A program made the position numbers and the translations under genes. Positions 7,337 through 16,113 of a stretch of 64,000 bases of DNA are shown here, piece after piece. Position 1 is the stretch's first letter; each line of letters opens with the position of its first letter. Below the pieces are notes generated by a model that was not told where the DNA came from, ran no database searches, and worked only from the letters and a program-made list of their open reading frames with translations. The DNA comes from Anaerolineaceae bacterium. GTDB taxonomy: Bacteria; Chloroflexota; Anaerolineae; Anaerolineales; Anaerolineaceae. The stretch spans positions 26,034 to 90,033 of the forward strand of contig JAGPFF010000001.1 of assembly GCA_018056725.1 (NCBI GenBank), given 5' to 3'.

Positions 7337-8356
7337 TCATAGTAGTTTTGCTCCACACGAATCGCGTATGATCAATTCGGTATCTAAGATGATTCGTCTA
7401 GCTGGTTTGGTACCGTTTTCGATCAAATCGATCAGTAATTCCACTGCTTTGACCCCAAGCCTGGTGATTGGCTGTTTGATCGTGGTCAATGGCACTTTTA
7501 ATTGTCTGGCGATTGGAATATCGTCGAACCCGACCAGGGCGATATCTTCTGGCACACGCAAGCCTGCCTCTTGAATGGTGCGCATTGCTCCGGCAGCCAT
7601 GATGTCTGATTGGCAGAATACTGCATCCGGCGCAAGGGGGAGCAGGGTTTTCATCCCCAAATAGCCGCTCACCTCGGTAAAATCACCTTCCACAATCCAC
7701 TCATTACCTGGTTCACAACCGGCTGCGCGCAACCCCTTTCGGTAGCCTTCGAGACGATCCTCGGTTACGGTGCTGTCATGATTGCCAGTGATGGTGGCAA
7801 TCCGTTTGCGCCCAAGATTCAAAAGGTGTTGGGTTGCTTTCATCGCCGCGCTTACATTATCAATATCAATAAAGCTGAGACCATCCACAACAAAGGGGCG
7901 CCCAATGATTACTACAGGAAGATTGGATCTGGTAAGCCGGTCGATGATTAATTCATCCGGGCGACCCGCCTGAATGAGGATCCCATCCAGGAATCCCCGC
8001 CGCGAAATACGCGGGAGAATCTTTTCTTCATCCTCACGGTTACCAGCCAGGAAAAGGGAAAGAGACAGATCATTGTTGTTGCAACCAAACGCGATGCCCT
8101 GGGTTAAGTGAGGGAAAAACGGATCAGTAAAAAATGAGGCAACACTGCGTGGAAGCAGCAAGCCGATCATGTGAGAACGCTGGGAAGCGAGCGAGCGCGC
8201 TGCCGCATTGGGCTGATAGCCCGTGGATTGAATGACCTTCTGCACTCGTTTGCGGACTTCAGGGCTCACGTTTGGGGAATCATTGATCACCCGCGATACA
8301 GTTGAGCGGTGTACACCAGCCAGTTTTGCCACATCTTCAAGGGTTAATTTTTCCAT
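7337..8356 (-). CDS. LacI family transcriptional repressor (cellobiose-locus regulator, CebR/CelR-like)
   Basis: N-terminal HTH LEDVAKLAGVHRSTVSRVIN followed by a periplasmic-binding-protein-like sugar domain. I trimmed the start to MEKLTLEDV (ATG at 8356) because the longer ORF runs through the promoter and operator. Confidence 0.85.
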   Translation of the reverse strand: MEKLTLEDVAKLAGVHRSTVSRVINDSPNVSPEVRKRVQKVIQSTGYQPNAAARSLASQRSHMIGLLLPRSVASFFTDPFFPHLTQGIAFGCNNNDLSLSLFLAGNREDEEKILPRISRRGFLDGILIQAGRPDELIIDRLTRSNLPVVIIGRPFVVDGLSFIDIDNVSAAMKATQHLLNLGRKRIATITGNHDSTVTEDRLEGYRKGLRAAGCEPGNEWIVEGDFTEVSGYLGMKTLLPLAPDAVFCQSDIMAAGAMRTIQEAGLRVPEDIALVGFDDIPIARQLKVPLTTIKQPITRLGVKAVELLIDLIENGTKPARRIILDTELIIRDSCGAKLL

Positions 8357-8434: not shown

Positions 8435-8674
8435 CAGGTTTACGGAAAATTTAAGATAATGCGCCGGTTTTGAACCTTCACTGGAAGATTACACGAAGAG
8501 CAGGCGGTGGGGTGGGTATGGTACTTCACTGGTCTCTCATGGTGAAAAGAGGATGACAGCGTTCTTTTGCAGATCGAAGCGCCAGTGGTTAAGAGGGAAG
8601 TATTCAAACGAGCATAAGAAGTCGCTCCCATTTACTGAAGAGGCACCCTATTTTTGCTCTACAGGATGCCTTTT

Positions 8675-8748
8675 CCCCTGCATCACCGGGCGAAACTTGC
8701 GACCATAGGGAGTGCTGTGCATAACCGTACATCCGACTCGGTCTGCGT
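8675..8748 (-). repeat. R1: 74-nt remnant related to the 3' end of a DUF35 gene
   Basis: Matches R2 (9743..9816) at 70 of 74 positions. Its reverse-strand reading contains YGRKFRPVMQG, compared with the intact gene end YGYKFRPVIRA. Confidence 0.8.
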
Positions 8749-8765
8749 GGAGCAGGGAACAATCA

Positions 8766-9575
8766 TCAGCTCTTGGCTTGCGGTATATGGGTGCTGGCGG
8801 GTGAGGTCAGCACGTAATCTGCTGTAATGCCATCCTTCTTGAACACATAAATCGACCAACCAATTGTCTCCCGCCCCCACCTCAAGTAGCTCTCCCGATT
8901 CTCCCTGACTTGTTTCAACACCTCCTTCACATCAGGATCCTCTGGATGCTTGTCTGCCCACTCTGTCGCTGCATACCACTGCAACCCCTCATATCTGTCC
9001 CAATCATCCGGGTTGCTTACCAAAGTATAGACCAGTTGTAGCCCAAGCTCTTGCCCTGCCTGTGCATTCTCATAGTGCGTTCCAAGCGAGCCCCGTTCTT
9101 CTCCGATGGCTTCCAAATACTCTACTACTGGTTCTTGCCGCCAGTATGGCTCGCCCACCACCACCCAACCTTTGTGAGCTGCCATCTCTTTTAGCGCCTT
9201 GAGGGTTGCTTTATGACCGCCAAAGATCCAGCTCGCTCCAATGCAGGCGACCAGGTCAAAGCATCCCGGCTTTTCCGGTTTAAAATTCGCCCCATCCATC
9301 TCCACGAACGTCAACTGAGCATCCGGGATGCGTTCTTTGCACTTTTTCTCTGCGTCCGAAATATGGTATGGCGAAATATCAATCCCTGTTCCTGCAATCT
9401 TGTATCGTTCAGCCATACGGATGATGAACTCGCCCTTCCCTGTGGCGATCTCAAGCACCCGTGCTCCAGGTTCAAGGCGCAAAAGAGCGATGAGTTCCTC
9501 AAATTTCTCAACACTCATCGGGTTGCAGAAAACGTGTTCATGGTGGGTGATGTCAAAGTACTTCCAGCGGTCCAT
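8766..9575 (-). CDS. Class I SAM-dependent methyltransferase (cassette A)
   Basis: Motif I VLEIATGKGEF and downstream MTase motifs. I trimmed the start to MDRWKYFD (ATG at 9575) with AAGGAGAG upstream. The longer ORF-track version runs across a terminator and R2. Confidence 0.75.
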   Translation of the reverse strand: MDRWKYFDITHHEHVFCNPMSVEKFEELIALLRLEPGARVLEIATGKGEFIIRMAERYKIAGTGIDISPYHISDAEKKCKERIPDAQLTFVEMDGANFKPEKPGCFDLVACIGASWIFGGHKATLKALKEMAAHKGWVVVGEPYWRQEPVVEYLEAIGEERGSLGTHYENAQAGQELGLQLVYTLVSNPDDWDRYEGLQWYAATEWADKHPEDPDVKEVLKQVRENRESYLRWGRETIGWSIYVFKKDGITADYVLTSPASTHIPQAKS

Positions 9576-9692
9576 CTTCACTCTCCTTCTAACGGGAAGA
9601 ATACCCTTTTGCATTCCGATTGTATGAGCAGCATGAATTCGTTCATCTTGTCCTACATTGCAATTATACAAATAACCTCTACTGACAGAAAA

Positions 9693-9721
9693 CAAAAACG
9701 CCCTCCAAATTTCGGAGGGCG
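9693..9721 (-). terminator. Rho-independent terminator following R2
   Basis: Reverse strand: CGCCCTCC gaaattt GGAGGGCG followed by TTTTT. Confidence 0.65.
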
Positions 9722-9742
9722 GCTCAATCACAAACCACATTA

Positions 9743-9816
9743 CCCCTGCATCACCGGTCGGAACTTACGAACATAGGGAGTGCTGTGCATAACCGTACAT
9801 CCGACTCGGTCTGCGT
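9743..9816 (-). repeat. R2: 74-nt remnant related to the 3' end of a DUF35 gene
   Basis: Near-identical to R1. The reverse-strand reading ends in YVRKFRPVMQG followed by a stop. It contains the imperfect inverted repeat GTCGGA...TCCGAC. Confidence 0.8.
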
Positions 9817-9991
9817 AAAAGAGTGAGAGTATCGCCTAAACAGGGGAGCGTTTTATGATGACTTGCGGATATGTACCAGGTTTAATAGCAGGATGCTTCC
9901 AGCGCGTAGAAAACTTTCGAAAACGCCACAGAAAACCACGGGTTAGGTACACTATTTTTTTACCGGGTTTTATCTCTCAACACCATTGTTT

Positions 9992-10543
9992 TTAAGGTGC
10001 AGAAACAAAGACCCATTTGCCACAGCCATTAAATTCAACCTGAAAGGCACTGGGTGATATATAAGCCGTCCCACCTGACATACCGAAATGGTTATCAATA
10101 ATATCTCCTGTTTTGGATGTAGTTGCCCAGTAACAAAAATCACTATTTCCCGTTGAACGCCATATGCCAGGTGCAATATCAATATTAACTAAATAAAAAC
10201 CATCTTCTTTGTCAGCGCGTAATTGGGCGATCAACTTAGCCTGAGCAGTTTGTGTAGGGTTGGGCGTTTCAGTCGGTGTACTTGTAATTGTGGGGGTTGA
10301 AGTTATAGTCGGCGTAAAGAGAGGCGTAGGCGTGTAAGTTGTAGTAACTATCACTATTCGAGTAATTTCAACTGCAATAGTGGCTGGTGGTGTGTAAGTA
10401 GGAAAGGCAGTGTATGACGGAACAGGCGTCCAAACTGCTTGTGTTTGCTTGATAGCATCCTGAATTTGGGATGCAGATGGAGCACATGATGTTATAAACA
10501 CGATGCCTGTACAAATTATTGTGATGAGAAGATTCTTTTTCAT
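9992..10543 (-). CDS. Hypothetical lipoprotein with Pro/Thr-rich linker (cassette B)
   Basis: 183 aa. Signal peptide and lipobox FITSC, a linker TPTPLFTPTITSTPTITSTPTETPNPT, then a ~90-aa C-terminal domain. RBS AAGGAG. No family recognised. Confidence 0.6.
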   Translation of the reverse strand: MKKNLLITIICTGIVFITSCAPSASQIQDAIKQTQAVWTPVPSYTAFPTYTPPATIAVEITRIVIVTTTYTPTPLFTPTITSTPTITSTPTETPNPTQTAQAKLIAQLRADKEDGFYLVNIDIAPGIWRSTGNSDFCYWATTSKTGDIIDNHFGMSGGTAYISPSAFQVEFNGCGKWVFVSAP

Positions 10544-10552
10544 GATTTCTCC

Positions 10553-10942
10553 TTATTTTTCAAATTCCAAGCCACCCGTAGATTGGAGATATGCCCAATG
10601 ACTATAAGGCAATCTCAAAATGATACGGTCAGTTAAATCGGAAGACGCACTTATGGCTGCCATTCGACAAAGAAGAGAAACTCCACCTTCTATTTGGAGA
10701 CATAGACCATCAGGCGATGAGAAAATGGGCATTTCTGGATTACGTGAATGATATATGAAAGTTATGCCTTCGGGAAGTGCGCCAATGGGTTGTATTGTAA
10801 AAACTCCAGGACGTATTAATACCCACGCAAGCACAAAAACTGCAATGATGGCAATTGCAATATAAATTCCCTTGCCGGACTTATGTGATGTGGACGCAAC
10901 CGTTAGCTCAACTGCTGCCTCGTCTGCTGCCTCTTCTGTCAT
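10553..10942 (-). CDS. Hypothetical single-pass membrane protein (cassette B)
   Basis: 129 aa with one hydrophobic span IYIAIAIIAVFVLAWVLI. Lies 9 nt upstream of the lipoprotein gene. No family recognised. Confidence 0.5.
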   Translation of the reverse strand: MTEEAADEAAVELTVASTSHKSGKGIYIAIAIIAVFVLAWVLIRPGVFTIQPIGALPEGITFIYHSRNPEMPIFSSPDGLCLQIEGGVSLLCRMAAISASSDLTDRIILRLPYSHWAYLQSTGGLEFEK

Positions 10943-11220
10943 GGCTCATCCTTTCTACTTTGGGATTTTGGCATTGCCTCCTACTTATTAATTATATGAA
11001 TTTTGAAAAATCTGAGATATGCTGTAAAGCAAGTTTAATAGGTTATCTCAAACGATCAGCAGCCAACAAATCTTAAAATATTAAACATTCAGCTTGGCAA
11101 AGTCAAACAGCCATGACCGATCACTCCCCTCAAAAACCCAAAAAACTTCTTGATCAGCCGGTAGGGTGGGCTCGGTTTTAAAACCACCGCTTTTACAAGG
11201 CTAATTATATGCCCCAACAC

Positions 11221-11250
11221 AAAAAGCGCCCTCCATCTCTGGAAGGCGCT
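11221..11250 (-). terminator. Rho-independent terminator following R3; homologous to the terminator at 12026..12055
   Basis: Reverse strand: AGCGCCTTCC agagat GGAGGGCGCT followed by TTTTT. The sequence aligns with the terminator of the intact DUF35 gene. Confidence 0.7.
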
Positions 11251-11270
11251 TCGATGCTCAAATCGATCTC

Positions 11271-11440
11271 TTAATCAGCCGCCACCGGGCGGGTCATCAC
11301 AGGTCGGAACTTGTACCCGTACATCCGACTCGGTCCGCGGCTTGTCGCCATCCTGTCGCACCCGGCGGGTGACCATCTCCACCGGCATGCCAATCTCCAC
11401 GGGCTGGTCGCCCAGGTCGGTAAACTGTGCGGTGACTATG
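11271..11440 (-). pseudogene. R3: decayed copy of the last ~50 codons of a DUF35 (OB-fold/zinc-ribbon) gene
   Basis: The reverse strand reads IVTAQFTDLGDQPVEIGMPVEMVTRRVRQDGDK, compared with MVTAQLTDLGNEPVKIGMPVEMVTRRLREDGEK in the intact gene. A frameshift follows, then MYGYKFRPVM and a stop. It has no 5' part and no start codon. Confidence 0.85.
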
Positions 11441-11486
11441 TTTGATTGAGTTGCCCTAAGCAGTGTTTCTCAGACTTTTACTCTTC

Positions 11487-11891
11487 CTACTCGTTCCCAG
11501 TGGAGTTTTTACTTATAGCAATGAGAGCTACTGTTCCAAGCGCTCCACCGGTTGCAGTGAGAAGAGATGGTATCGGGGTGGGAATAGCTGTCAGTAAACC
11601 AACAAACAAGCCCTTGCCGATAGCTAATCCCCACTGTTCTCGCATTGCATTTTTTTGAATTAGCACACAAATAATTGTGGCAACTATCCCAATGGGGATA
11701 GAAATGGGCCAGGATGCGGCTAAGCCTCCTGTACCGAATAGCATGACATCCAAAACAATCATCATTAGTGCGACAATCGGGTTTAGGCCAAAAAATTGGC
11801 AGAACTGAATGAACTTGTTCAATTTATTTCGCCCTCCAGTAACTTTAGAAGTATGGACCACAATACTAGCATTCGCGTATGATACCCCCAC
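11487..11891 (-). CDS. Hypothetical small polytopic membrane protein (cassette C)
   Basis: 134 aa with 3-4 hydrophobic spans and a GTG start as called. No family recognised; the start is uncertain. Confidence 0.45.
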   Translation of the reverse strand: MGVSYANASIVVHTSKVTGGRNKLNKFIQFCQFFGLNPIVALMMIVLDVMLFGTGGLAASWPISIPIGIVATIICVLIQKNAMREQWGLAIGKGLFVGLLTAIPTPIPSLLTATGGALGTVALIAISKNSTGNE

Positions 11892-12025
11892 AGCTTGCGC
11901 AACCTGCTTATGGACGGGAGTGGATAAAGACGTTGAGCAAGATTTAACTTCTTATAGAATAACCACCCTGTCTTTTCTTTACTCCACCTATTTCATTATA
12001 CAAATTTGAGGTTTTCTTACCAAAT

Positions 12026-12055
12026 AAAAAGCGCCTTCCAATTCTGAAAGGCGCT
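12026..12055 (-). terminator. Rho-independent terminator of the mevalonate operon
   Basis: Reverse strand: AGCGCCTTTC agaatt GGAAGGCGCT followed by TTTTT, 22 nt after the DUF35 stop codon. Confidence 0.7.
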
Positions 12056-12077
12056 TCAAATCAAAAATTCAATCCAT

Positions 12078-12479
12078 TTACGCTCTTATCACCGGTCGGA
12101 ATTTATACCCGTAGACCAGGATCCCCTTTTTCTCGCCATCTTCGCGCAGACGGCGGGTAACCATTTCCACCGGCATGCCGATCTTCACCGGCTCGTTGCC
12201 CAGATCGGTTAATTGCGCCGTGACCATAGGACCTTCATCAAGCGCCACCACCGCCACGGTGTAGGGCGCATTTTGCTCGTACCCTGCTGGAGCTTCGCGC
12301 ATGACGGTATAAGAATACACTTTGCCTTTTCCGCTGAAGGCGTACTCGGTTTTGGCTTCACCGCCGCATTCCGGGCAAACATCGCGTGGAGGGAATATTT
12401 TCGCATCACAATGCGGACAAACCTCTCCAATGAGGCTGTAGCGTTGCTTTTTCATTCGCCAGTAGCGTGGATTTTCCAT
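12078..12479 (-). CDS. DUF35 OB-fold/zinc-ribbon protein (scaffold subunit of the thiolase/HMG-CoA synthase complex)
   Basis: 133 aa. Rubredoxin-like CPHCDAKIFPPRDVCPECG followed by an OB-fold. RBS AAAGGAG. Last gene of the HMGR-HMGS-thiolase-DUF35 operon. Confidence 0.85.
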   Translation of the reverse strand: MENPRYWRMKKQRYSLIGEVCPHCDAKIFPPRDVCPECGGEAKTEYAFSGKGKVYSYTVMREAPAGYEQNAPYTVAVVALDEGPMVTAQLTDLGNEPVKIGMPVEMVTRRLREDGEKKGILVYGYKFRPVIRA

Positions 12480-12580
12480 TATGACTCCTTTTCGTTCCTT
12501 TCCTGCACGTGCGATGATAAGTGTAGAGGTCGAATGCTATCAATTCCTATCAGGTTTGTTCCGAGAAGCTGGAATTTTAC

Positions 12581-13744
12581 TTAATCGCTCACTCTTTCAA
12601 GAACATGGGCAATGGCTGTGGATGCCGCGCCTCCCAATGAAAGGGTAAGCGCTCTACGCGCGTCTGGCACCTGGTTGGCACCTGCCTGCCCGCGTAACTG
12701 GGTCACCGCTTCCACAATCTGGTAAACACCAACTGCACCGATGGCATTTCCACGTGCCAGACTGCCCCCCATTGTCATCAGCGGCAAACGACCGCTCAAC
12801 GCAAAGTCGCCATCCCGCGCCTGCTGCCAGGATCGACCGACATCCGCCATACCGCATGTTTCCAGTGTCAGCGCAGCATAAATCGAAAAAGCGTCATCCA
12901 GTTCAAATAAACTGATCTGCTCAGGCTTGACCTCTGCCTGCTGTGTTGCGGCAAAGACGGCGTTTGCCGCCGCGCTGAAGGAAAGAGGTTCGTAGCGGTC
13001 ATGCCAGGAAAGCGAGTCGCTGCTGGCGCCGGTCCCGGCGATCCGGATAATCGCATGAGGGTAATCAGCCGGGAGCCGGTCAAGGCGGGTGAGAATGACG
13101 GCAGCCGCCCCATCGGCGTACGATCCGCCGTCAAAACGGTTCAAGGGATCACTGGTTTGAGCTCCACGGTTGTAGGCTTCGGCTGAAAGGGGTTGGCGAT
13201 GAAAAGCATTGGGGTTGGAGGTTGCATTGGCGTGTGCCAGGAGAGCAAAACCACTCAGAGCTTCGGAGGATAAATCATGTTCATGCAGATAACGGTGCTG
13301 GATCAGAGCGGCAAGACCGGAGCTGGTGAGCCCGGGAATGGCTTCGAAGTCAAAATCCATTTCCTGGGTCAACCGGGCTTCAGCTTCCTCCCGAAGCAGA
13401 TCGGACCACTTTTCCACGCCCAGCACGGCAACTGTGTCGGCGTAACCACTGAGGATGGAAAGAACGCCAAGGCGCAGCGCGGCAGCTCCGCTGGCACCGG
13501 CAGCTTCCGTGGTATAGGATTCCACCCCATTAAGGTGGGCATAATCAGTGAAGAGGGCGCCAAGGTTTGCCTGGTGCGAAATCATCGAAGCCAGCATATT
13601 CCCGATATATAGCGCGTCGGGCTTGAGATCTCTACTGTCATGAATTGCCTGCATCAGCGCTCTGACCCCCATTGAACGCAGGCTAAGATCATAATGCTCG
13701 CCGACCGGGATTTGACCGATTCCTGCAATGACAACTTCAGTCAT
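12581..13744 (-). CDS. Thiolase-fold protein (archaeal/SCP-x type acetyl-CoA acetyltransferase homologue) lacking the canonical catalytic Cys and His
   Basis: 387 aa from MTEVVIAGIGQ (ATG at 13744, RBS GAGGAG). Thiolase-like motifs are present (GVEKWS, DGAAAVIL, QLRGQAG). However, it reads AAGASG where ACASG is expected and GNAIGAVG where GHP.GATG is expected. Confidence 0.8.
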   Translation of the reverse strand: MTEVVIAGIGQIPVGEHYDLSLRSMGVRALMQAIHDSRDLKPDALYIGNMLASMISHQANLGALFTDYAHLNGVESYTTEAAGASGAAALRLGVLSILSGYADTVAVLGVEKWSDLLREEAEARLTQEMDFDFEAIPGLTSSGLAALIQHRYLHEHDLSSEALSGFALLAHANATSNPNAFHRQPLSAEAYNRGAQTSDPLNRFDGGSYADGAAAVILTRLDRLPADYPHAIIRIAGTGASSDSLSWHDRYEPLSFSAAANAVFAATQQAEVKPEQISLFELDDAFSIYAALTLETCGMADVGRSWQQARDGDFALSGRLPLMTMGGSLARGNAIGAVGVYQIVEAVTQLRGQAGANQVPDARRALTLSLGGAASTAIAHVLERVSD

Positions 13745-13754
13745 AGCGTGCTCC

Positions 13755-14831
13755 TCAGTCCATGTCAATTTTGCCGCGGAAGCGGGCGTACGTGGCATAG
13801 TTGATCTCCGTCCTGCGGGCGAGATAGTCTGCCACGGTCGGGGCAAGCGCGCGCCGTTCTTCGATACGCTCTGTTACCACATGATAGAAGGCATCGGATC
13901 CAGCTCCTGAGCCATAAGAAACTTGCAAAATACGGTCACCGGGTTTGGCGATATCCAGCACCGCGCTCAAACCAATCATGGTGGCGCCAGCGTAAGTGTT
14001 ACCGATTTTCGGCACGAGTAAACCCGGCAAAAGTTGTTCATCACTGAAGCCAAGGTCTTTTCCAGCTTTCATCGGGAAGCGGGGATTGGGTTGGTGAAAT
14101 ACCGCATAGGTAAAATCGGCTGCGGTCATTCCCAATTCATCCATCAATACCCGTCCGGCGGTTTCCACATGGCGGAAGTAAGCCGGGTCGCCGGTGAACC
14201 GCTGGCTGTGCTCGGGATATTTCTGCTCGGGACGGCGCCAAAAATCGGGCGTGTCGGAAACAAAAGAATAGCTGGCTTCAATAAGAACTGCCGCTTCTTC
14301 CGCAGGACCGATAACGAACGCCGCGCCACCGCTGCTGGCGGTGTATTCCAGCGCATCACCGGGTTTTCCCTGCGCCGTATCCATGCCAATTGCCATGGCG
14401 TAACGTCCCATGCCTGAGCCAACGAGAGCAATCGCGGCAACCATCGCCTCGGTGCCAGCTTTGCAGGCAAATTCCCAATCCCCTGCCTGGATGTGATTTG
14501 AAGCGCCAATGGCTTCCGCCACAATGGTGCCGCTGGGTTTCACGGCATAGGGGTGGGATTCTGACCCTACCCACACGGCGCGGAGTTCCTGCGGGTTGAT
14601 TCCCGCGCGCGCCAGCGCGTTCCGGGCTGCTTCGATGGACATGGTAATGACATCTTCATCCAGCCCGGCAACGGATTTTTCCTGCACCGGGGAGCCTTTG
14701 GGGGAGCCCGTCCAGAGTTGCGAGATTTCGCTGCCTGGCAGGCGATAGCGGGGAATATAGGACCCATACCCGATAATTCCGGTTTTGCGGTCCGTTCGTA
14801 ATAAAAGGGATTTGTTATGTGGTGTATTCAT
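13755..14831 (-). CDS. Hydroxymethylglutaryl-CoA synthase, archaeal type
   Basis: 358 aa from MNTPHNK. Contains [21 protein letters not shown] (Glu), [10 protein letters not shown] (Cys), FHQPN (His) and GNTYAGA. Confidence 0.85.
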
Positions 14832-14835
14832 CCGG

Positions 14836-16113
14836 TTATTTTCTCCATTCCTGAAGAATTTGTGCCGCCCGATCTGCGCGGATCGAATGCTCACGAATGA
14901 GCTGGCGGGCGAGCCGTTCTACCTCTTCTCCAACTGCGCCTACCGATAACGCTATCTGACGGGCATGGAGGCTCATGTGACCGCGCTGGATCCCCTCGGT
15001 GGCAAGAGCGCGCAATGCTGCCAGGTTCTGAGCCAGCCCCACCGCCACGATGATTTGTGCCAGTTCTGAAGCGGAGGCAACTTGCATCATCTTGAGGGCG
15101 GTTTTGGCTGTGGGGTGCGACCGCGTGGCTCCGCCAACAATACCCACTGCCATCGGCATTTCAAGAAATCCTTTCAGGTTACCGTTGGAATCAGATTCCC
15201 ATCTGCTCAGGCTGGTGTAACAGCCCCCGCGGGCGGCATAAGCGTGCGCGCCGGCTTCCACCGCTCGCCAGTCATTCCCGGTTGCGATCACCACTGCATC
15301 CACACCATTCATGATGCCTTTATTATGCGTGGCGGCACGGTAGGGATCAGCCACAGCAAAAGCCCATGCTTCGAGGATACCATCACGAACCTTTTCAGGC
15401 GCATAAGCCCCAAACCCCAGCGAGGCAAGCGGAATGGTGCACTCCGCACTTGCCAACCGCCGGTCTGCCAGGTTGGAAAGGATGCGTAAATGCGGACGTC
15501 CACCGCTGATTTCCGCCACGAGTGGAGCGATTTGTTCCAGTGCAGTGTTGATGGCGTTGGCGCCCATGGCGTCGCGAACATCATAAATAAGATGGAGGAC
15601 TAAAAATGGACCGATGGGGGAATCATGGATCTCCCGCACTTCAAGATCGCGTGGACCCCCGCCAAAACGTGAAAGGACGGGGTCGACCTGTGCCGCCAGC
15701 GCCATCAGTTCTTCACGTCTTGCCAGAATTCTGGCTTTCGCCTCGGCAAGATCGGAAAGATCGAGTAATTGTAGCTGACCGATCATCTCCGGAGGGGTCG
15801 ACTGCGTGGTAAAACCGCCACCCTCACGTGTCAGGCGCGCCATAAAAGAAACTGCCGCGATCACTGAAGGTTCTTCAATCGCCATCGGAACGATGACGTC
15901 ATGACCATTGATGAGAAAATTACGCGCCACGCCCAGGGGAAGGTTGTAAACGCCGATAGCGTTCTCGATCATGTGATCCGCCTGTTCGACAGTCAGCCCA
16001 TGACTGCCATCCAGAGTCATCAACTCTTCCGGGGTCAGATGCGCTTCCTCCGCGAGGATTTCCAGCCGGTTAAAGAGCGGGAGTTGGTAAAACTTGGATG
16101 AATGTTGTTCCAT
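14836..16113 (-). CDS. Hydroxymethylglutaryl-CoA reductase, class II
   Basis: 425 aa. Contains [47 protein letters not shown] and SLHARQIA. Confidence 0.9.

Follow-up and report, generated by a model that had tools for sequence, protein, structure and literature searches.

Repeated DUF35 gene ends in an Anaerolineaceae genome as probable junction scars of serine-recombinase elements, one of them a decayed integron

Mobile elements that settle at the 3' end of conserved genes are known in several forms. The SCCmec and pseudo-SCC cassettes are inserted by a large serine recombinase (LSR; CcrAB or CcrC) into the last codons at the 3' end of rlmH (orfX) with the reading frame preserved, and they build composite tandem arrays between direct repeats, in which cassettes without a recombinase persist. 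Islands at tRNA and tmRNA genes carry a copy of their target's 3' end, are marked at their borders by direct repeats and use a tyrosine integrase. The ssrA islands of Dehalococcoides go with the serine recombinase DsiB (McMurdie et al. 2011, PMC3146451). In integrons, clusters of attC sites lacking an integrase are called CALIN (Cury et al. 2016, PMC4889954). Integrons have already been reported in Chloroflexi. Here we analyse 64 kb of DNA from an Anaerolineaceae bacterium of anaerobic digesters (contig JAGPFF010000001.1, positions 26,034 to 90,033; hereafter the window), in which three remnants of the 3' end of a DUF35 gene, R1, R2 and R3, lie downstream of the intact gene, with small cargo genes between them. 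An earlier note on this DNA, made from its letters alone, had proposed that foreign DNA entered repeatedly at this gene end.

We read R1-R3, with a probability of about 0.68, as junction scars of elements moved by an LSR at the last codons of DUF35, one of these elements being a decayed integron. In this scenario, the chromosomal attachment site would be the last codons of the gene (..V-Y-G-Y|K-F-R-P-V..), and the element family would be widespread in Anaerolineaceae. One element end would carry an arm, GCGCGGACCGAGTCGGATGTACGGGTAT, containing a 19-mer common to the three remnants, while the other would bring replacement tail codons, a stop codon and a terminator. Insertion would keep the gene intact and create a junction at the far end of the element, in which the arm is followed by the core and then by the displaced tail and its terminator. 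R1-R3 would be right-hand junctions of this kind, and the DNA between them the remains of three element bodies, so that the small units, which could be taken for a new class of mini-cassette, are read instead as decayed bodies. The middle one (unit 2, from the R3 tail to the R2 arm) would be a dead integron, running from terminator T3 through an integron integrase (intI) stub with its promoter region, a marginal attI remnant, two open reading frames (ORFs), an attC and a conserved flank to the R2 arm. Unit 1 would consist of terminator T2, a methyltransferase gene, the degenerate 3' half of an attC and R1, and unit 3 of terminator T0, a promoter-like site, an ORF for a polytopic protein and R3. 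No recombinase gene is left in the window, and the array would thus now be fixed.

The closest analogues are the ssrA islands and SCCmec. The ssrA islands belong to the same phylum and resemble the DUF35 elements in having a serine recombinase of ~540 aa on the reverse strand adjoining attL, in targeting the 3' end of a single-copy essential gene, in forming tandem islands bounded by direct repeats of that 3' end, in a conserved motif just upstream of each repeat that cannot be aligned with the gene, and in members without an integration module, which have been read as accretion or cis-mobilisable elements (PMC3146451). The DUF35 target differs in being protein-coding and part of a mevalonate operon, so that codons and a stop have to come with the element. 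The host is of another class (Anaerolineae), many DUF35 elements carry integrons, and the units of the window, at 0.6-1.5 kb, are much smaller and have decayed further. With SCCmec the locus has in common that a conserved protein gene is entered at its last codons, that tandem arrays form and that some cassettes lack a recombinase. However, the relationship is distant, since the best NCBIfam matches of the LSR found in relatives are CcrA, CcrB and CcrC at scores far below the cutoff (48.7 bits against 700); a single recombinase gene is seen and not a ccrAB pair, and host, target and cargo all differ. Like islands at tRNA and tmRNA genes, the DUF35 elements carry a copy of the target's 3' end and have direct repeats at their borders, but no tRNA or tmRNA was found in the window, which agrees with the earlier note on the tRNA, and the recombinase at the junctions of relatives is of the serine family.

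The anatomy of the repeats carries the first part of the argument (Table 1). R1 and R2, which had been counted as identical at 70 of 74 positions, share 94% identity over 77 nt, and R3 (11271-11441) is 76-81% identical to the end of the intact gene (12078-12229), where about three quarters had been estimated by eye. R3 can be translated as IVTAQFTDLGDQPVEIGMPVEMVTRRVRQDGDK in one frame and as ..SRMYGYKFRPVMTRPVAAD* in another, and it is composite: its left part (11340-11441) is a genuine 3' coding fragment of DUF35, the arm GCGGACCGAGTCGGATGTACGG, whose 19-mer occupies 11317-11335, forms its middle part, and its right part (11271-11316) is the core followed by the tail KFRPVMTRPVAAD*. The 19-mer, CCGTACATCCGACTCGGTC, has three exact copies in the window, all at the DUF35 locus, against 0.01 expected, and the window's intact DUF35 gene lacks it, just as had been noticed. 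The core ATCACNGGNCGNAAYTT.. is present four times (repeat family D3), as direct repeats in one orientation downstream of the target. Three hairpins (12028-12057, 11223-11252 and 9699-9721) are homologous to each other at 72-79% and are the top terminator-like matches on the minus strand, which bears out the homology of T3 with T0. The inverted repeat GTCGGA...TCCGAC was recovered in R2 and R3 and is eroded in R1. It is not significant as a single-strand hairpin (z -0.6 to -0.95); folded as single-stranded DNA, R1, R2, R3 and the gene end do no better than shuffled sequences, and the dyad is therefore read as a double-stranded binding-site feature. The earlier description of R2 as a 74-nt copy is too short for the conserved unit around it, which runs ~170 nt further, to ~9967; R2 follows an attC there, at a fixed spacing seen in 17 arrays.

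The arm is what distinguishes these units from copies of a gene end. Scanning metagenomes with the exact 19-mer returned 70 contigs, 69 of which continue with GTAYAARTTYMGNCC and a DUF35-like tail, the usual continuation being the DUF35 core TAYGGNTAY|AARTTYMGNCC and then the tail. Where the DUF35 gene is present on the contig, it lies 0.4-3.5 kb upstream of the 19-mer on the same strand. For comparison, we used the loci of 80 Anaerolineaceae species oriented on DUF35, 64 of them with at least 3 kb of downstream sequence (loci and contigs are numbered with L). Allowing up to three mismatches, the arm occurs in 14 of the 80 loci as well as three times in the window; these copies lie 743-7872 nt past the DUF35 stop and none upstream, 21 on the gene strand and 0 on the other. 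The arm is absent from all 81 intact DUF35 genes compared, and it is unchanged across genera whose DUF35 proteins are only ~75% identical. To the right of TAT|AAGTTC, the tail matches that of the resident gene itself in L065, L025, L063, L055, L056 and L088. Element arm, core and displaced host tail would together have the composition of an attR, and the 19-mer is probably a conserved, element-borne recombination arm, mobile or constrained and not a product of decay.

This last point departs from the earlier note, which had spoken of serially decayed copies of the gene end. It is very improbable that R1-R3 are merely former native gene ends decaying with age and that the 19-mer is an ancestral DUF35 sequence since lost. 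By eye the arm does align loosely with the gene's ..GAGCGCGGCATGCTGGTGTACGG.., and in R3 it continues from real DUF35 coding sequence; however, none of the intact genes has it, and non-functional remnants would not stay identical across genera so far apart in their DUF35 proteins. A chance resemblance to the gene end, either of a generic dispersed repeat (like repetitive extragenic palindromes or miniature inverted-repeat transposable elements) or of a structured RNA or 3'-untranslated-region element, is the least credible of the explanations considered. The unit is indeed short, dyad-symmetric and present in numerous metagenome copies. Nevertheless, the 64 kb hold only three copies, at one locus and in one orientation, the DUF35-like tail is attached in nearly every metagenome contig, and the copy is always downstream of DUF35 where the gene is on the same contig. 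Dispersal away from DUF35 genes, which the earlier note had named as fatal to its proposal, was thus not seen. As for a structured RNA, Rfam searches of the region and of the loci of four relatives gave nothing relevant, and the folding described above speaks against it. Other candidates were set aside as well: diversity-generating retroelements, group II introns, IS200/IS605 and IS110 bridge-RNA elements for the lack of a reverse transcriptase or transposase, the first also because the differences are not confined to adenines, and XerCD/dif modules for the lack of a dif-like 28-mer.

The DUF35 3' end is an insertion hotspot well beyond this genome. About 27 of the 64 loci hold one to five extra DUF35-3'-like units, all downstream and all in the orientation of the gene. 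Extra matches to the core pattern AARTTYMGNCC number 62 on the gene strand and 18 on the opposite strand. Across the 80 species, intact DUF35 genes end in ..VYGYKFRP and then diverge sharply, with tails that include VMQG, VGLGPH (five species), VLAGPQ and AWNAPIK. Closely related species are ~90% identical in nucleotide sequence over the 10 kb upstream, and they cease to be collinear at the DUF35 stop. Between units lie small ORFs, most of them co-oriented and nearly all unique: when 537 downstream ORFs were clustered, the largest family occurred in six loci. A few cassettes recur at other array positions (95-97% identity). No recurrent recombinase appeared among these 537 ORFs, from which those overlapping the DUF35 stop, where the LSR gene sits, had been excluded. 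The closest genome representative searched has a DUF35 91% identical to that of the window. The proposal that this gene end is an entry point, with same-oriented insertions and gene ends displaced downstream, is thereby supported, and gene order in relatives is highly variable, not the invariant synteny that would have spoken against it.

A recombinase abuts the site in relatives. In L040, a 556-aa ORF on the opposite strand (10320-11990), with the Pfam domains Resolvase, Recombinase and Zn_ribbon_recom, converges on DUF35 and overlaps its last 86 nt. A full-length homologue in L021 likewise overlaps the DUF35 stop, 3' fragments are left in L013, L034, L039, L058 and L065, and homologues of 62-79% identity converge on the DUF35-thiolase-HMGS-HMGR genes in five further contigs (L163-L167). 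There are 601 homologues at E < 1e-30, the named ones from Anaerolineales or Chloroflexota, and a scan of viral contigs with the LSR returned nothing. The idea of a recombinase-less or unrecognised system is therefore given up. The statement that no integrase is present remains nearly true of the window, with neither an LSR nor an intact integron integrase, although it missed a 15-codon intI stub and an attC. As a further observation, the LSR ORF reads across the attL junction into the opposite strand of DUF35 and covers the final 80-90 nt of that gene (L040 10320-10408; L163-L167), so that its C-terminal residues would differ between the integrated and excised forms. Some cargo is defence-like: an AAA_13/ABC/SMC-type ATPase by Pfam in L058 (1699-3897) and, by eye only, a TIR/SIR2-like 445-aa ORF in L056 (14697-16034). 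In L168 (613-4169), a type I restriction-modification methylase and specificity subunit lie beside an LSR that is not at DUF35.

The two element ends also fit together. The left end, GGACTTGGTCCGCAC.., is common to five species. The gene end of L163 reads ..GTGTACGGGTATAAGTTCCGACCTGCGGGACTCGGTCCGCGCTAG, and the LSR-adjacent GACTCGGTCCGCGC in this contig is the inverted repeat of the arm GCGCGGACCGAGTC at 14 of 14 positions (12 of 14 in L040). When the arm is joined to the left end, the result is a reconstructed attP of ~58 bp, dyad-symmetric in its outer parts, whose 30-nt centre imitates the YGYKFRP codons; its two halves come from separate contigs and not from one circular junction. LSR attP sites typically have such outer dyad symmetry. 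The predicted circular junction would read arm, TATAAGTTC, CCTG[CT]GGGACT[CT]GGTCCGC. P-O-P'-like junctions occur in L095, L160 and L065; the one in L065 (6387-6631) lies inside the array, where arm and core are joined to a P'-like half-site and to what is left of the LSR 3' end (64 codons). Such a structure would be expected where two tandem elements meet. The gene of L058 carries the LSR-type tail VGLGPH* followed by only ~90 nt of the LSR gene and then cargo, and the arm with the tail VMAR* lies 3.1 kb downstream. VMAR* is still found on the genes of L031 and L033, and it would be the ancestral-type tail, displaced in L058. From such comparisons, we infer that an LSR catalyses these junctions, that the crossover falls inside TACGGGTAT|AAGTTC, and in what order the insertions took place.

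Inside the arrays of relatives lies a second, integron layer that the earlier note had not recognised. To the left of the short units there is a ~140-nt module, conserved across species, that starts with RYYYAAC and ends with GTTRRRY. A covariance model finds 49 such attC-like copies, all in array orientation, and a single match in the window at 9829-9967 (84.9 bits, E 1e-21), which stands behind a cassette ORF in that ORF's orientation and has degenerate R boxes (R'' GGTAAAA, R' GTTTAGG). Among the 44 distinct copies on which covariation was assessed, 75% of cells pair against 68% in shuffles (0/500 reach this value), compensatory changes are seen in 19 of 22 pairs, and pairing in slid controls is 28-38%. 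The LSR arm follows 17 of 46 distinct modules, 11 of these at exactly the same spacing, which suggests that attC plus an arm at fixed spacing is the conserved right end of integron-type elements.

Full integron integrases were found in L119 (487 bits) and L097 (432 bits) with TIGR02249 (cutoff 265); each sits directly behind the terminator of a DUF35 end or unit and faces away from the array. Stubs of this integrase occur in about eight more loci. Searches of the window by motif and by tblastn, the latter with IntI1, found no tyrosine recombinase. All that is left is a 15-codon N-terminal stub (11104-11148), MTDHSPQKPKKLLDQ against MSDQSIPKSKKLLDQ in the L119 IntI, within a stretch (11065-11157) that matches the L119 platform at 72% nucleotide identity over 97 nt (E 1e-6); the remainder of the gene is deleted. 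Relatives show strong conservation of the attI, in 13 arrays or more (..TTGCAG-N15-TATAAT-TAATAG|TTGGGC), and an nhmmer profile built from 13 arrays gives a marginal match in the window at 10975-11001 (E 0.013, 4.2 kb searched). A second match, at 9654-9669, is not significant, and an attI remnant is proposed for unit 2 alone. Examples in relatives are L119 1339-1381, L025 6598-6640, L065 5682-5723 and L047 11006-11051; a sigma-70-like promoter (TTGCAG, 15 nt, TATAAT) stands a few bases before G|TTGGGC and points into the cassettes. A cassette common to L016 and L065 begins right after the R' G|TTGG. Thus relatives share with known integrons the TIGR02249 integrases, the attI core G|TTGGGC and covarying, one-orientation attC sites behind small ORFs. 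They differ from them in that the R repeats themselves are not attC sites and that the platforms are framed by LSR att half-sites behind the DUF35 end. The window, with one full attC and one degenerate 3' half, falls short of the two or more attC sites without a nearby intI that make a CALIN.

One could speculate that the integron integrase itself makes the junctions, by inserting cassettes or whole arrays at a secondary site (G|TT in AAG|TTC) of the DUF35 3' end, with the LSR a bystander. We consider this improbable. It would suit the position of intI, attI and attC directly behind DUF35 ends and the GTT within the core, and CALIN are known to arise, among other ways, when cassettes insert at secondary sites (PMC4889954). 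However, a conserved flank of ~60 nt parts the attC R' box from the DUF35 core, where R' fused directly to TTCCGNCC would be expected, so that the core is not an attC junction. Moreover, some units have no attC near them, such as the one behind the remnant of an LSR-type element in L058, and the inverted partner of the arm adjoins the LSR gene and not intI.

Several observations weigh against LSR-made junctions as the whole story. First, no LSR homologue exists anywhere in the 64 kb, and the array can thus only be a remnant or a non-autonomous member of the family. The gene end of the window has the tail VIRA* and matches the dyad at 2 of 14 positions, hence it is not P'-like and looks like an unoccupied attB, not an attL. 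Among relatives, no complete LSR element with both ends was seen in a single contig; L166, which holds a complete-looking one, has no recognisable right end, and neither an empty and occupied site from the same species nor a circular form was recovered in the loci retrieved. Second, R1 and R2 both have native-type VMQG tails, and R2 also a native-type terminator, which does not fit simple serial attP x attB insertion, as this predicts one native tail. In addition, R1 and R2 are more alike than their left flanks, which are much more diverged, and this points to duplication or gene conversion. Third, true DUF35 coding sequence makes up the left part of R3 and is closer to the genes of other species (83-89%) than to the window's own, and gene-type left halves of variable length (30-400 nt) recur in many units of relatives; an LSR crossover at the core could not produce such sequences. 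Finally, R1 and R2 have a 22-nt insert between arm and core.

Inserts of this kind, 20-27 nt long and placed mid att unit between ..TACGG(G/T)TA and (T)AAGTTC, lie in the window at 9766-9790 (R2) and 8698-8722 (R1), and have counterparts in L016 (14420-14490), L054 (13540-13585), L088 (~15776-15797), L019, L055, L061, L126 and L133. Each holds a small GC hairpin, such as GTGC-ACA-GCAC, and in several species the unit of ~22 nt is tandemly repeated two or three times. Such inserts would uncouple the arm from the crossover core.

The unexplained left halves bring in the strongest competitor, accretion driven by homology without a dedicated recombinase. In this explanation, foreign DNA from related species would come in through RecA-dependent events anchored in the conserved mevalonate operon and the DUF35 3' end, whether unequal crossing-over, Campbell-type integration of circles or homology-facilitated illegitimate recombination, and truncated gene ends would stay behind. 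We regard it as unlikely on its own, if clearly less so than the other alternatives. It accounts well for the genuine DUF35 3' fragments of variable length, for the affinity of the R3 fragment to other species' genes, for the near-identity of R1 and R2, and for a cassette gene whose own 3' end is duplicated in the same manner in L054 and L061. Yet it leaves three things unaccounted for: an arm found in no intact gene and nonetheless conserved across genera at a fixed position, the dyad partner of this arm beside the LSR gene, and the recurrent LSR gene at the junction. Homology-driven accretion is therefore best seen as a second process at the same locus, and homologous recombination, unequal crossing-over or gene conversion probably reshape these arrays too, for example in the duplication of R1 and R2.

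The case of L054 and L061 is worth describing. The first cassette gene behind DUF35 is hemerythrin-like in both, and the final 170-190 nt of this gene recur along the array (L054 10819-11006 and 13277-13468; L061 10814-11005, 13105-13275 and 15538-15725), each time with a short DUF35-tail unit behind them. L061 is L054 with an additional 2.1-kb insert, which these hemerythrin-like repeats border. Duplication of 3' ends at this locus is thus not limited to DUF35.

Table 1. Features of the DUF35 array in the window and, in the last row, intact integron integrase genes of relatives.
Feature	Coordinates	Strand	Basis or remark
HMG-CoA reductase, HMG-CoA synthase, thiolase, DUF35, 134-aa, 129-aa and 183-aa ORFs, S-adenosylmethionine (SAM) methyltransferase, LacI-family regulator	in this order	-	
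Intact DUF35 gene (zf-ChsH2 + OB_ChsH2_C)	12078..12479	-	Pfam; final gene of the HMGR-HMGS-thiolase-DUF35 operon
Target core ..GTCTACGGGTAT|AAATTCCGACCGGTG.. in the intact DUF35 gene	~12088-12117	-	repeat family D3; C-terminal comparison, 80 species
Terminator T0, native-type operon terminator	12028..12057	-	
Promoter-like site after T0	12023-11995	-	
Unit 3 cargo: ORF for 134-aa polytopic membrane protein	11487..11891	-	weak AzlD-like match
R3	11271..11441	-	DUF35 coding fragment + element arm + core/tail
Terminator T3	11223..11252	-	homologous to T0
Integron integrase 5'-end remnant + promoter region	11065..11157	+	nucleotide match to L119 platform
attI-like remnant, weak (ATTCATATAATTAATAAGTAGGAGGCA)	10975..11001	-	directly upstream of first cargo ORF of unit 2; nhmmer
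Unit 2 cargo: 129-aa single-pass membrane ORF (10553-10942) + 183-aa lipoprotein-like ORF (9992-10543)	9992..10942	-	
attC-like site, imperfect long hairpin with R''/R' boxes	9829..9967	-	covariance model
R2	9740..9816	-	arm (19-mer 9793-9811) + 22-nt insert + core + native-type tail ..RKFRPVMQG*
Terminator T2, native-type	9699..9721	-	
Unit 1 cargo: SAM-dependent methyltransferase	8766..9575	-	Pfam
Degenerate 3' half of attC-like module + right flank	8749..8805	-	nhmmer, profile positions 152-259 (WIN coordinates 13196-13325)
R1	8672..8748	-	copy of R2 unit, dyad eroded, stop codon lost
LacI-family gene	7337-8356		R1 is the last unit ahead of this gene
intI genes	L119 2243-3229; L097 1389-2399		

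All genes between 7.3 and 16.1 kb of the window are on the minus strand. HMG-CoA reductase, HMG-CoA synthase, thiolase and DUF35 (12078-16113) form an archaeal-style mevalonate gene set in one co-oriented cluster, which is kept in all 80 Anaerolineaceae loci retrieved. ORF and Pfam analysis agree with the gene content first described for the three units, namely a methyltransferase, a lipoprotein with a single-pass protein, and a polytopic protein. Homologues of the polytopic ORF are present in other arrays (L107, L116). In unit 2, there is no attC between the two ORFs, neither has a Pfam match, and the cargo has a GC content of ~0.41. The methyltransferase has homologues of 77-78% amino-acid identity in the same variable region of L032 and L051, and homologues at ~32% directly precede 19-mer units in L094 and L142; the 3' end of its ORF overlaps the degenerate attC half. 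The GC content is 0.39-0.46 in 9950-12050 and 0.50-0.61 in the flanks, so the claim that all three units are AT-richer holds for two of them and fails for the methyltransferase unit (~0.52). No relative has a LacI gene or a binding-protein gene beside DUF35, and as a result the far boundary of the inserted region cannot be fixed by synteny. Sequence look-ups with the DUF35 and the lipoprotein of the window returned contigs that are all collinear with it. Window-matching metagenome contigs from independent samples end at shared coordinates: L001, L004, L005 and L007 at 10956/7, L002, L003 and L008 at 11525/6, L010 at 12113, and L011 and L012 within R2 (9772/9787). Either the assemblies break there because of the repeats, or strains differ at the junctions.

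The window probably holds a fossil array made by LSR and integron systems. The array is not an autonomous element, an integron or a CALIN, as it has no recombinase and only one full attC. It is also tempting to speculate that the two systems form two tiers across the Anaerolineaceae, in which integron platforms (intI, attI, cassettes and a last attC) are packaged as non-autonomous, cassette-chromosome-like units, framed by LSR half-sites and stacked by the LSR into the last codons of DUF35, with the window as a fossil of this arrangement. We put this forward tentatively, with odds slightly short of even.

On the main reading, the locus is a known kind of integration hotspot at a target for which a limited literature search found no description. 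The same search found no paper that links integrons to serine-recombinase islands or to DUF35, and both the DUF35 target and the arrangement of an integron inside an LSR element appear new. The logic of repeated entry at a gene end, as first proposed for this DNA, is right in kind; the notion of a new kind of site that works with no recombinase is not.

For the Anaerolineaceae, which are abundant in anaerobic digesters and sediments, these results identify the 3' end of an essential gene of the mevalonate pathway as a place of frequent gene flux, and they link two cassette systems, serine-recombinase islands and integrons, at one site. More generally, conserved remnants of gene ends can be element-borne recombination arms and not products of decay. 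For annotation, the 19-mer together with the core is a simple marker of these arrays. Moreover, the relatives provide a natural set of LSR, attP and attB combinations, as well as a Chloroflexota family of attC and attI sites, for experimental work. Finally, if the two-tier arrangement is true, integron cassettes would travel inside cassettes that are themselves moved by an LSR, a system for which our limited search of the literature returned no description.

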